36,532 bases of DNA from Eubacteriales bacterium (GTDB taxonomy: Bacteria; Bacillota; Clostridia; Oscillospirales; UMGS1783), in contig JAZRWQ010000059.1 of assembly GCA_045599805.1 (NCBI GenBank), positions 1 to 36,532 on the forward strand, given 5' to 3'. The notes under the pieces were generated by a model. That model was not told where the DNA came from, searched no databases, and saw only the letters and a program-made list of their open reading frames with translations. Positions 12,919 to 15,747 of this stretch are shown piece after piece. The position numbers and the translations under genes were made by a program. Each line of letters begins with the position of its first letter. Position 1 is the first letter of the stretch.

Positions 12919-12921
12919 ACG

Positions 12922-12955
12922 TAGCCTCGTTATTTTACGAGGCTATTATTTTACT
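12922..12955 (+). terminator. Intrinsic terminator after the metallophosphoesterase gene
   Basis: Stem TAGCCTCGT/ACGAGGCTA (12922-12930 with 12937-12945), 6-nt loop, then a T-rich tail. Confidence 0.7.
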
Positions 12956-13047
12956 TTGCTTTTGGTATTCTAAAATACCACAGAGCAATTGTGCACAAAG
13001 AAATAAAAAATTTTTAGAGAAATTTATAAAAAATATTAAAAAAAGTA

Positions 13048-13076
13048 TTGACAAATAAAAAAAGCTCTGCTATAAT
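13048..13076 (+). promoter_or_regulatory. Consensus sigma-70 promoter with an AT-rich upstream (UP-like) tract and no annotated gene downstream
   Basis: TTGACA (13048-13053), exactly 17 nt, TATAAT (13071-13076). Roughly 13000-13047 is almost pure A/T. Confidence 0.6.
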
Positions 13077-13230
13077 GAAGCCAAGATAAGAAACAAGACA
13101 AAATTCGAAAACCTCTCAGGAGAGAAAAGGGGTGGTTGTAATGACAGCGGAAATTGTCTACAGCCCCCGGCACGGGAAGTAAAGTGCAAGGGGGAAAACC
13201 AAAAAGTACAGTATAAAGGAGTTGTTAATT

Positions 13231-13293
13231 ATGAAGGTGATTAAAAAACCCTTTACGAATGACCGTAGGAGAATTATCAAAGCAAATCTATGA
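13231..13293 (+). CDS. Possible 20-aa micro-ORF (MKVIKKPFTNDRRRIIKANL) inside the orphan transcript
   Basis: ATG 13231 is preceded by AAAGGAG (13215-13221) at 9-nt spacing. The stop is TGA at 13291. Too short to judge coding potential. Confidence 0.25.
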   Translation: MKVIKKPFTNDRRRIIKANL

Positions 13294-13402
13294 AAGGATT
13301 GGTACGGTCCCATGTACAATTTAGGTTAATCCGAATAGAAGCCCCGAAATCATAGTTGAAGTCCAATGGACAAATATTAAAATGAAAAATAAATTTATTT
13401 AG

Positions 13403-13430
13403 AAAAGCCTCCGTTTTAACGGAGGCTTTT
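13403..13430. terminator. Bidirectional intrinsic terminator (orphan + transcript and the - strand zinc-ribbon gene)
   Basis: Stem GCCTCCGT/ACGGAGGC, flanked by AAAA on the left and TTTT on the right. Confidence 0.7.
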
Positions 13431-13512
13431 CAAGTTATCATGACATATTCATAAAAAACAGAACGGAGCAAGGTTTCCCCTGCTCCGGTAAGATCAGTTT
13501 GATTTGTAAAAA

Positions 13513-13791
13513 TCAGTTGTTCTCTTTCTGCTTTGCAAAGCAATCGCTGCAATAAACGGGTCTGTCTTCTCTGGGCTGGAAAGGAACCTTTGCTCCGCCG
13601 CCGCACATAGCGCAAGTAGCAGTAAAGAATTCTCTGTTAGCCTTGGAAGCGTTCTTTCTTGCAACTCTGCATTCTTTGCATCTCTGAGGCTCGTTCTGGA
13701 AGCCTTTTTCTGCATAGAATTCCTGTTCGCCTGCAGTGAAAATAAATTCTTTACCGCAGTCTTTGCAAATTAATGTCTTGTCCTCGTACAT
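13513..13791 (-). CDS. CxxC zinc-ribbon protein (CxxC-x17-CxxC domain type)
   Basis: CKDC...CKEC and then CAMC-x17-CSDC, counted by hand. GAGGGG Shine-Dalgarno upstream. Confidence 0.8.
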   Translation of the reverse strand: MYEDKTLICKDCGKEFIFTAGEQEFYAEKGFQNEPQRCKECRVARKNASKANREFFTATCAMCGGGAKVPFQPREDRPVYCSDCFAKQKENN

Positions 13792-14607: not shown

Positions 14608-15747
14608 ATGAGTATTTATTTTGATAACAGCGCAACCACCCGTGTTTTAGACTCGGCGGCAAAGGCGGCGTATGAGGCCATGACCGAAGGATATGCCAAT
14701 CCGTCATCCCTTCATACGGCAGGTATTGATGCGGAAAAGCGCATGAGTGAGGCAAGAAGGCATATTTCCGATGCGCTTAAGGCTTTGCCCGATGAAATAT
14801 TTTTTACCTCCTGCGCCACCGAAGCAAGCAATATTGCCATTTTCGGCGCATACGAGGCGCTTAAAAGAAGAGGGTACAGGGTAGTAACCACCACGGTAGA
14901 GCATCCGTCGGTTTACGACTGCTTCAAAAAGCTTGAAAAGATGGGCGCCGAAGTAATATACGTTTCTCCCAAGGACGGCAAATTCCGTCCGGAGGATTTT
15001 TATAATGCGATAAATAGAGATACCATACTTGTAAGTGTTATGTATGTTAATAACGAAACGGGTGACATCCTTCCCGTTGACTGCATAAAAAGCGCCATAA
15101 AAAAGGCAAATGCTCCGGCGCTTTTCCATTGCGACTGTGTGCAGGCATTCGGCAAAATAGATATCCGTCCGGAAAAAATGGGTATGGATATGATATCGCT
15201 TTCGGCGCATAAGCTTTACGGCCCCAAGGGTATCGGCGCGCTCTATCTTCGCAAAGGCGCGCGGATAGTGCCGCAGAACTACGGCGGCGGTCAGGAAAAG
15301 GGCATGCGTTCGGGCACCGAGAATACCGCCGGCATTGCCGCATTCGGTGAGGCTGTAAACTATGTTTTCTCAAACTATAAGGATATTGAAGCAAAGATGC
15401 GCAGTCTTCACGGATATTTCCTGAGCGAGGCGTTAAAGCGCCCGTTCATAACGGTAAACTCCCCCGAAAACGGCGCGTATCATATTATAAATATCTCTCT
15501 TATCGGCTGCCGCAGCGAAACCGTGCTTCATTGTCTTGAAGAAAAGGATATCTTCGTTTCGTCCGGCTCCGCCTGCTCTTCTCACGGGGGCTCCGCCAAA
15601 CGTACAAGAGTAATGGCGGAATACGGTTTTCCTTTGGAAATTGCCGACAGCGCCATAAGAGTAAGCTTCGGAATATACAATAATACCGATGAGATAGATG
15701 TGTTTATGAAAGAGATCGAAGCGGTATACGACCGTTTAAAGAGGTAA
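14608..15747 (+). CDS. Cysteine desulfurase (NifS/IscS class; ThiI-partner NifZ-like by context)
   Basis: PLP-lysine motif SLSAHKLYGPKG and active-site Cys loop SSGSACSS. Sits immediately upstream of thiI, as in the Bacillus nifZ-thiI arrangement. Confidence 0.9.
   Translation: MSIYFDNSATTRVLDSAAKAAYEAMTEGYANPSSLHTAGIDAEKRMSEARRHISDALKALPDEIFFTSCATEASNIAIFGAYEALKRRGYRVVTTTVEHPSVYDCFKKLEKMGAEVIYVSPKDGKFRPEDFYNAINRDTILVSVMYVNNETGDILPVDCIKSAIKKANAPALFHCDCVQAFGKIDIRPEKMGMDMISLSAHKLYGPKGIGALYLRKGARIVPQNYGGGQEKGMRSGTENTAGIAAFGEAVNYVFSNYKDIEAKMRSLHGYFLSEALKRPFITVNSPENGAYHIINISLIGCRSETVLHCLEEKDIFVSSGSACSSHGGSAKRTRVMAEYGFPLEIADSAIRVSFGIYNNTDEIDVFMKEIEAVYDRLKR

Follow-up and report, generated by a model that had tools for sequence, protein, structure and literature searches.

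A stand-alone small RNA of Clostridia with micro-ORFs and a conserved Shine-Dalgarno-mini-ORF module

Introduction

What does a strong bacterial promoter transcribe when no gene follows it? The question is raised by a locus on a 36,532-nucleotide (nt) stretch of DNA, hereafter called the window, from a Eubacteriales bacterium (Bacillota, Clostridia, Oscillospirales, UMGS1783; GenBank assembly GCA_045599805.1, contig JAZRWQ010000059.1, positions 1 to 36,532, forward strand). A first-pass annotation of the window had proposed that this locus is an independent, strong transcription unit producing an unclassified RNA of ~350 nt and/or a micro-protein. Our computational analysis supports that proposal, and the tests that had been named for its refutation (lack of a transcript, assignment to a known RNA family, lack of conservation in close relatives) came out in its favor. 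We conclude that the locus is a real, independently transcribed small RNA gene (~13083-13436, + strand). The best reading, which we hold with moderate confidence, is that its product is a micro-ORF messenger or a dual-function RNA that would work through ribosome engagement, the ORFs (open reading frames) in question being very short and one of them belonging to a conserved module that resembles a translation start.

Results

The promoter described in the first-pass annotation, TTGACA and TATAAT separated by 17 nt behind an almost pure A/T tract, is present and scored 12/12 against the consensus in a promoter scan, with an extended TG in addition (Table 1). Near-consensus promoters occupy the equivalent relative position in the relatives examined, phased A-tracts of a similar kind lie upstream of the promoters of the homologous RNAs, and BLAST found the promoter region to be 80 to 89% identical to the promoters of tRNAs and 5S rRNA in related genomes. 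Since the other matches to this promoter drive tRNAs and 5S rRNA, we consider it to be of the stable-RNA type. The terminator that had been proposed is found both in the sequence and in the minimum-energy fold, as a 13-bp hairpin (13403-13430) that starts ~325 nt 3' of the promoter; a consensus scan missed it because its T-run consists of 4 T only. All homologous RNAs that we followed to their end close with a strong terminal hairpin and a T-run, the sequences of which differ. As claimed at the outset, the list of ORFs contains no + strand ORF of 60 amino acids (aa) or more between promoter and terminator, and the next gene lies on the - strand. In fact, the next two genes are on the - strand, the nearest of them (13513-13791) has its own terminator, and a separate, perfect promoter serves the next + strand gene (14608).

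No RNA family in Rfam claims the region, in agreement with the initial impression that it belongs to no known class. Searches of Rfam 15 with cmscan gave no match at the gathering score over the whole window, terminator-like noise only at E values up to 10 for 12920-13520, and no match on the homologous loci of the same family, of other families, and of other orders. The RNA is strongly structured: a 349-nt stretch folds at -94 kcal/mol versus -66.7 +/- 5.4 kcal/mol for dinucleotide shuffles (z = -5.1), and 0 of 100 shuffles folded as well. Taken with the promoter, the terminator, and the other features, this z score indicates that the original observation is correct and lies beyond chance.

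The locus is conserved and syntenic in close relatives, which argues against decayed DNA. All 12 genomes of the family have the metallophosphoesterase gene that precedes the RNA, and the gene order thrC, metallophosphoesterase, strong promoter, RNA, and terminator was read in 10 of the 12 (genera g1, g2, and g3); the other two, G005 and G007, stand outside this count, as their contigs end before the RNA locus. The G005 contig (L023, G005:C284, after base 2025) stops ~200 nt past the metallophosphoesterase gene, at a G+C-rich GCCGCCGCGCCCTGC repeat. G001, which belongs to the same genus as the window, contains two tandem RNA units (a and b), G003 (genus g3) contains one, and G002 and G011 contain short forms of the locus. 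Genus g2 has a matching promoter followed by a gene-free stretch of 430 to 525 nt, with a terminator and with short blocks in common with the window, and in this genus, as in G001, a terminator and a convergent gene also follow the RNA.

BLAST of the 401-nt region against 60 relatives matched the promoter part only, and a MAFFT alignment of the window with genus g2 was unreliable; homology of the RNA body was recognized by reading the syntenic loci. A metagenome scan with an alignment of the metallophosphoesterase yielded 80 loci, with identities of up to 53% and with the module described below downstream in none of them, so that no family members were added. Closer metallophosphoesterase homologues were found (P0001 to P0016, 93 to 56% identity). 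Collections of phages and plasmids showed no similarity to the locus.

In two metatranscriptome runs of one study, a relative that is ~93% identical in the RNA is abundant in the RNA libraries. One RNA contig of 236 nt (depth, 1639) covers 13125-13334 and another of 217 nt (depth, 1171) covers 13154-13334; such contigs stand for high-depth presence in an RNA library and do not give ends or strand. The RNA is probably very highly expressed. The flanking metallophosphoesterase and sigma-factor genes had no RNA cover, which we did not use as evidence, since these flanks may fall below the 90% cut-off.

Decayed DNA, a chance pairing of promoter and terminator, or a diverged housekeeping RNA (6S RNA, transfer-messenger RNA, signal recognition particle RNA, or RNase P) could likewise account for a locus with no long ORF and with peptides that lack a family match. 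We regard this explanation as highly improbable, in view of the conserved synteny and strong structure of the locus, the abundance of a relative in RNA libraries, and the absence of any Rfam match, even at permissive thresholds, among the homologous loci that were scanned. As for 6S RNA in particular (RF00013), it was rejected as a candidate, and bona fide 6S RNA was found above the cut-off elsewhere in the window's own genome (G000, contig C81) and in four relatives (G001, G002, G003, and G004).

What the RNA does contain is a series of very small ORFs (Table 1). The 20-codon ORF with an AAAGGAG Shine-Dalgarno (SD) sequence that had already been pointed out, named ORF-B here, was confirmed and proved to be a conserved coding element. 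Its homologues comprise two 20-codon copies in G001 (MKEILKKPFSASRRRILKEL and MKQILKEPISSARREILKEL), a 19-codon copy in G002 (MKKILKIARFSRRVLKEPF), 25-codon copies in genus g2 (MRKPRSGTSVGAHGLATRKKVLKKP), and a 36-codon copy in G003 that has the C-terminal sequence VMKEPY. The encoded micro-proteins (19 to 36 aa) are basic and have in common the C terminus R-[RK]-x-[IV]-[LIM]-K-[EKA]-[PLN], and the 3' ends of their genes align at the nucleotide level. ORF-A, which precedes ORF-B, has homologues of 11 to 12 codons in G001 (MINIVFSPCGK and MINIVFSPCKAK) and is fused in frame to the next ORF in G003. Its lengths in G000 and the G001 copies are 13, 11, and 12 codons, and the length differences of both ORF-A and ORF-B amount to whole codons.

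A coding signature was observed in the ORF-B of genus g2, the frame of which is open in 6/6 genomes. Its variable columns number 5, 3, and 13 at codon positions 1, 2, and 3, respectively (binomial P = 0.007, a value that overstates independence because the g2 genomes are close kin), so that third positions hold 13 of the 21 variable columns. Nine of the 15 variable codons are purely synonymous, and the others are conservative (K/R, S/T, P/A, G/R, and S/I). Compared with the window, the metatranscriptome relative has the substitution K13M in ORF-A (13178) and the changes K2M, T9I, and N10A plus a synonymous Ile15 codon in ORF-B, and every indel falls in the inter-ORF spacer (13187-13213), with none in the ORFs. 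These patterns suggest that the conservation of the locus is largely codon-like, and we infer that the ORFs are translated.

The peptides had no match in Pfam or NCBIfam. The ribosomal proteins bL34 and bS21, to which they bear a faint resemblance, were rejected as candidates, as there was no profile match and as regular L34 and S21 are encoded elsewhere in 5/5 genomes tested. Near the 3' end of the RNA, a six-codon ORF, MKNKFI (13382-13402, + strand), lacks a good SD sequence, and its stop codon directly abuts the terminator stem at 13403; a ribosome translating as far as this stop would open the terminator. RNAs of other families and orders likewise have short ORFs whose end coincides with the terminator stem, a similarity in position.

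Directly after the micro-protein stop lies a module that is the best-conserved block in all relatives, GAAAG(A/G)GG, GUAYGGUCC, any base (N), and AUG. It is laid out as an SD sequence, UACGGUCC, N, AUG, one to four codons, and a stop, and the sequence GTAYGGTCC occurs once in the whole 1.5-Mb genome. A motif model of the module (R2, see below) scores the window copy at E = 4e-6. Read-through from the micro-protein stop into the mini-ORF of the module was considered and rejected, since the two are in frame in some g2 genomes only.

In genera g1 and g3, the module forms a hairpin (H3) with an inner stem GUAY/GUAC and a loop GGUCCNWU. The outer stem of this hairpin covaries, with GGAUU/AAUCC in the window, GUUAG/CUAAC in G001, and UUCAUGAA/UUUAUGAA in G003. 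Genus g2 has two to three modules per RNA, with a different fold. Farther downstream in the window, a small hairpin at 13361-13371, present both in the letters and in the predicted fold, repeats the core of the module and might be a second, degenerate copy of it.

Three other helices had been drawn in the first-pass annotation, and two of them (~13134-13165 and 13164-13194) are part of the minimum-energy fold. The third, 13261-13267 with 13303-13309, also forms in the fold and competes there with the conserved local hairpin; it is not conserved, because its 5' arm is absent in G001. Compensatory changes support the helix at 13164-13194 (H2): its two-tier shape re-forms in both units of G001 (a and b) and in G003, where the outer GCCC/GGGC stem is constant and the inner helices differ (CUGCGG/CCGCAG, UGUAAG/CUUACA, and CAGG/CCUG). 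In genus g2, a minimal and invariant GAGCC/GGCUC version of H2 lies inside the g2 ORF.

Table 1. Features of the small RNA locus in the window
Feature	Positions	Strand	Remarks
A/T-rich upstream tract	12999..13047	+	UP-element-like; read from the sequence
Sigma-70-type promoter	13048..13076	+	-35 TTGACA 13048-13053, 17-nt spacer, TG 13068-13069, -10 TATAAT 13071-13076
Transcript (inferred), ~350 nt	13083..13436	+	From promoter and terminator; start inferred at ~13083
ORF-A, 13 codons	13141..13182	+	MTAEIVYSPRHGK; extended SD GGGGTGGTT 13129-13137; start within hairpin 13134-13165
Hairpin H2	13164..13194	+	CCCCC/GGGGG closing GCAC/GUGC; ORF-A stop codon in loop; in minimum-energy fold
ORF-B, micro-protein gene, 20 codons	13231..13293	+	MKVIKKPFTNDRRRIIKANL; SD AAAGGAG 13215-13221, 9 nt upstream of ATG
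Conserved module	13293..13332	+	SD-like AAAGGA 13293-13298, GUAC 13302-13305, GGUCC 13306-13310, AUG 13312-13314
Hairpin H3	13296..13332	+	Outer stem GGAUU 13296-13300/AAUCC 13328-13332; inner GUAC 13302-13305/GUAC 13314-13317
Mini-ORF MYNLG, 5 codons	13312..13329	+	Part of the module, directly after micro-protein stop
Small hairpin GUCC-AAU-GGAC	13361..13371	+	Repeats the module's GUCCAAUG core
Intrinsic terminator	13403..13433	+	13-bp stem AAAAGCCUCCGUU/AACGGAGGCUUUU at 13403-13430; T-run partly within stem

We evaluated the distribution of the module with a pattern and two sequence models. A strict composite pattern matched in this family only among 401 genomes of the order, with 0 matches in reversed controls. 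Further copies were found with R1, a sequence model of the ORF end plus the module, and with R2, a model of the module alone that was built from 26 instances and used at E <= 1e-3 within the order and at E <= 1e-4 in other orders. Matches to R2 were obtained in 20 of 151 genomes of the order, namely in 7/7 genomes of family f1, in 6/6 genomes of genus g9 (family f7), and in single genomes of six other families, as well as in 4 genomes of other orders of the class. In nearly all of the matches examined (extra copies in G001 aside), the module is located in a stand-alone RNA that runs from a near-consensus promoter to a terminator; two weak matches were not resolved to this level, G144 (neither promoter nor terminator identified) and G168 (followed to the promoter only). 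A + strand gene comes after the terminator in G046 and likewise in genus g9.

The number of module copies per RNA ranges from 1 to 5. In G025, a 10-codon ORF precedes MYK and MNSEHQN units, G110 carries four to five units in tandem (MNK, MNK, MNG, and MRK), and the RNAs of genus g9 (~300 to 700 nt) have an 11-codon ORF and then MR, MY, MKQF, MF, and similar units. In other orders, the RNAs are ~430 nt long and carry the unit ~15 nt from the inferred 5' end. The ~430-nt RNAs L164 to L167 (in G542, G517, G501, and G429) and L146 (G110) have a common CACGGCGGTGTTACGC hairpin and several AAAGAGGT repeats. They also have a 3' ORF of ~10 codons, ending in KSEQK or similar, whose stop is the first triplet of the terminator stem, and this ORF shows two synonymous differences between G542 and G517.

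Over 36 distinct instances, the consensus of the module is RGAGG-UAC-(G/A)GUCC-N-AUG-(U/A)AC, in which UCC is invariant by construction, as the selecting pattern required it. The columns that the pattern left free are strongly skewed, with GAGGUAC upstream and AC after the AUG, and the preferred second codon is NAC or AAG. The mini-ORF has at most 5 codons in 30/34 distinct instances, versus 6/34 in the +2 control frame. That the AUG frame closes early and the +2 frame does not indicates that the reading frame of this very short ORF is under selection. The module thereby marks out a wider and as yet unclassified class of stand-alone RNAs, with a patchy distribution in this order of Clostridia and with members in at least three families outside it that belong to other orders.

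The main rival of a micro-ORF messenger is a purely non-coding structured small RNA that would act by base pairing in trans or as a sponge for a protein or for the 30S subunit, its ORFs being incidental or serving to recruit ribosomes. C-rich loops are known in RNAIII and in RsaE-type regulators, and the GGUCCNAU that the module hairpin presents in its loop in genera g1 and g3 recalls them. The z score of the fold and the covariation of H2 and H3 fit this rival too, as does the presence of 1 to 5 module copies per RNA, as in sponge RNAs; moreover, one nucleotide stretch is kept across families in different frames, and at the peptide level the first ORFs in other families lack homology. We nevertheless consider a non-coding RNA rather unlikely. 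It would leave unexplained why substitutions in the g2 ORF are biased to third positions, with most of the variable codons synonymous, why length changes come in whole codons, with 19 to 20 codons kept in four ORF-B copies, and why the mini-ORF closes so early in its own frame and not in the +2 frame. Nor is a target or partner known for it, although no search aimed at targets was made.

G001 also contains five near-identical cassettes of ~190 nt (L147 to L151), each with a promoter and a leader with an SD-GUACGGUCC-AUG module, 5' of five signal-peptide genes. They are located on C8 (at ~15.4 kb and ~64.6 kb), C23 (~10.5 kb), C18 (~142.3 kb), and C32 (~2.4 kb). The module is the 5'-proximal upstream ORF of these leaders, with the mini-ORF MYSLV in four of them and MVNLISVHRF in the fifth, and the first ORF is shortened by stops in two copies. 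Each cassette then continues with signal-peptide codons (MKKKLF... or MRKKLF...), and the genes behind the cassettes, for secreted proteins or lipoproteins, differ from one another. The arrangement resembles a common expression cassette that duplication or gene conversion has spread, and its location suggests that the module can also act as a 5' upstream ORF.

Such leaders raise the possibility that the window RNA is itself a ribosome-sensing leader, that is, a leader-peptide attenuator whose downstream gene is either under its control or lost. Antibiotic-responsive attenuators typically have a strong SD sequence and a very short upstream ORF, and the leader peptides of ribosome-mediated attenuators (those of erm, cat, and ABC-F resistance genes) resemble our RNAs in their very short ORFs, strong SD sequences, and nearby hairpins, the G001 copies being true 5' leaders. 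Several of the RNAs, including that of the window (13382-13402 before 13403), have a short ORF whose stop touches the terminator stem. A leader is nonetheless quite unlikely here. The genes that follow the RNA in the window are on the opposite strand or, at 14608, have a promoter of their own, the terminator and convergent gene recur in genus g2 and G001, and a stand-alone form kept across three genera is hard to square with gene loss. A same-strand downstream gene is thus missing in the window, in g2, and in G001, and it is found only with the five extra G001 copies; in contrast to attenuator leaders, the window RNA and nearly all relatives examined end in a terminator with no same-strand gene downstream, genus g9 being an exception.

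We then return to the micro-ORF messenger and its module, which is predicted to pair with nearly all of the single-stranded 3' tail of 16S rRNA (canonical sequence, GGAUCACCUCCUUU). GGUCC pairs with GGAUC (with one G-U pair), GAGGU with ACCUC, and AAA with UUU. The predicted duplex with GGAUCACCUCCUUUCU has an energy of -17.4 kcal/mol in the window and of -15 to -20 kcal/mol in every relative, with a linker of 2 to 7 nt, and one g9 copy reads GAUCC, which is the perfect complement of the tail.

As for the surroundings of the RNA gene, a bidirectional terminator hairpin (12921-12946) after the metallophosphoesterase gene cleanly divides this gene from the RNA promoter, and the -35 element has a perfect palindrome, TTGTGCACAA (12989-12998), 50 nt upstream of it. 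Elements resembling TGTGCACAA or TTGCACAA are found again ahead of the promoters from which homologous RNAs start in other genera and families (L155, L157, L153, L154, L027, L146, and L167). These palindrome-like elements could be an operator for a shared regulator. On the other side, the gene at 13513-13791 (- strand) encodes a 92-aa double zinc-ribbon protein, a small protein that is widely conserved and expressed. This gene draws many RNA contigs of other organisms in both metatranscriptomes, with 90 to 95% identity, loose ends, and apparent "joints"; the latter are most likely alignments across organisms.

Discussion

We propose that the RNA is composed of translated micro-ORFs rather than of one long structure. 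Its elements would be a basic micro-protein gene of 19 to 36 codons (here ORF-B), preceded in this genus by the 13-codon ORF-A, whose stop codon lies in a covarying hairpin, and followed directly after the stop of the micro-protein by the module, which consists of an SD sequence, UAC(G/A)GUCC, a single base, and a mini-ORF (AUG, one to four sense codons, stop). The RNA would act mainly via ribosome engagement. In such a scheme, the module would be a high-affinity site for loading ribosomes or for stabilizing the RNA, like the STAB-SD elements of Bacillus mRNAs. A very short messenger would in this way stay covered and stable, which would allow a high yield of the micro-protein. The RNA might in addition act as a regulator in its own right, as a dual-function RNA.

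A number of points weigh against this proposal, besides the kinship of the g2 genomes mentioned above. The sequences compared are few and related to one another (12 species in the family), and the evidence for coding is evolutionary in kind, not direct. Apart from its C terminus, the micro-protein is poorly conserved, the short first ORFs of other families (10 to 11 codons) have no recognizable homology to it, and in G036 a 12-nt stretch resembling the end of ORF-B is read in a different frame, which hints at a constraint at the RNA level. The SD-like element lies 13 to 14 nt from the AUG in the window and in G001, too far for a good ribosome-binding site, and with the 13 nt of the window initiation may be weak. 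Regarding the pairing with 16S rRNA, the energies are no more extreme than roughly the 0.1% tail of what random 22-mers from this genome give, and family f60 has GGACC or AGACC in place of GGUCC, by which one pair with the tail is broken. The canonical 16S tail was assumed, as the 16S 3' end is not assembled in these genomes; a pattern search for it in the assemblies gave chance matches only, the best candidate lying within a protein gene. Finally, expression is judged from contigs assembled for a relative in one study, and the library may contain DNA as well.

How does this RNA compare with known systems? Among dual-function small RNAs, RNAIII of Staphylococcus aureus contains hld (26 aa) and SR1 of Bacillus subtilis encodes SR1P (39 aa). 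Like them, the RNA described here is a few hundred nucleotides long, stands alone, and is apparently expressed strongly, with its own promoter and terminator, a very small ORF, and conserved hairpins. The independent transcript is indicated by the 12/12 promoter and the terminator hairpin, from which its ends are derived, and by the RNA-library contigs of a relative, whose high depth is confined to this stretch. ORF-B, which shows the evolutionary signature of coding, may be translated into a functional peptide. The RNA differs from RNAIII and SR1, to which it has no relation by sequence or by Rfam, in having several and smaller ORFs (13, 20, and 5 codons) and in being defined by an element that resembles a translation start and not by a target-binding loop; no base-pairing target is known for it. 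On dual-function small RNAs, see also the review PMC10730256.

The STAB-SD 5' stabilizer of Bacillus thuringiensis cry3A and similar elements (Agaisse and Lereclus 1996; Mathy et al. 2007; summarized in PMC4113751) offer a second comparison. A 30S subunit on a non-initiating SD sequence blocks RNase J1 (PMC4113751). Our module likewise contains an GAAAGGAGG-like sequence, complementary to the 3' end of 16S rRNA (with the canonical tail assumed), that starts no normal gene, and both in the G001 leaders and in the RNAs found in other orders it lies within ~15 to 25 nt of the inferred 5' end, a position from which a bound ribosome would block RNase J1. It differs from STAB-SD in that its SD sequence is followed by the conserved spacer, a start codon, and an ORF of 2 to 5 codons. 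In this family, moreover, the module is internal, 3' of the micro-protein gene, and stabilization is a putative function.

With its SD sequence, AUG, one to few sense codons, and stop, the module also has the layout of a minigene, the mini-ORF of the window having 5 codons. Described minigenes include the bar regions of phage lambda, synthetic minigenes of 3 to 8 codons, and the axe-txe minigene (PMC2490762, PMC8708949). In contrast to these phage, plasmid, or synthetic elements, which have been studied for the toxicity of peptidyl-tRNA drop-off, the modules described here are conserved, chromosomal parts of an abundant cellular RNA and have an invariant spacer; the comparison concerns layout alone. 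It is conceivable, if unlikely, that we are dealing with cellular "minigene RNAs". In these abundant, stand-alone transcripts, the purpose of the conserved start-(1-4 codon)-stop units, whose spacer matches the 16S 3' tail by complementarity, would be to capture ribosomes. The RNA might then be a tunable sink that takes up 30S subunits, initiator tRNA, or particular tRNAs, it might sense the status of translation, or it might supply formyl di- to pentapeptides. With respect to a sink, the second codon is mostly NAC, which is read by Tyr, Asn, and His tRNAs. Such RNAs would amount to an RNA-made device for the global control of translation, of which we found no earlier description.

The RNA class is assembled from known kinds of parts (small-ORF RNAs, SD stabilizers, and minigenes) and appears to be undescribed as such: the module RNAs have no Rfam family, and a literature search by the letters of the motif returned unrelated primers only. 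If our reading is true, a whole class of abundant transcripts of gut Clostridia has been missed because their genes are too short for gene callers and their structure is too weak for RNA-family searches. A basic micro-protein on the scale of 20 aa, made from a stable-RNA-type promoter, would be a candidate factor associated with ribosomes or nucleic acids. The conserved 22-nt module would be a ribosome-binding element whose spacer, unlike those of ordinary SD sequences, is under selection, and it could find use in Clostridia as a compact element for expression or stability.

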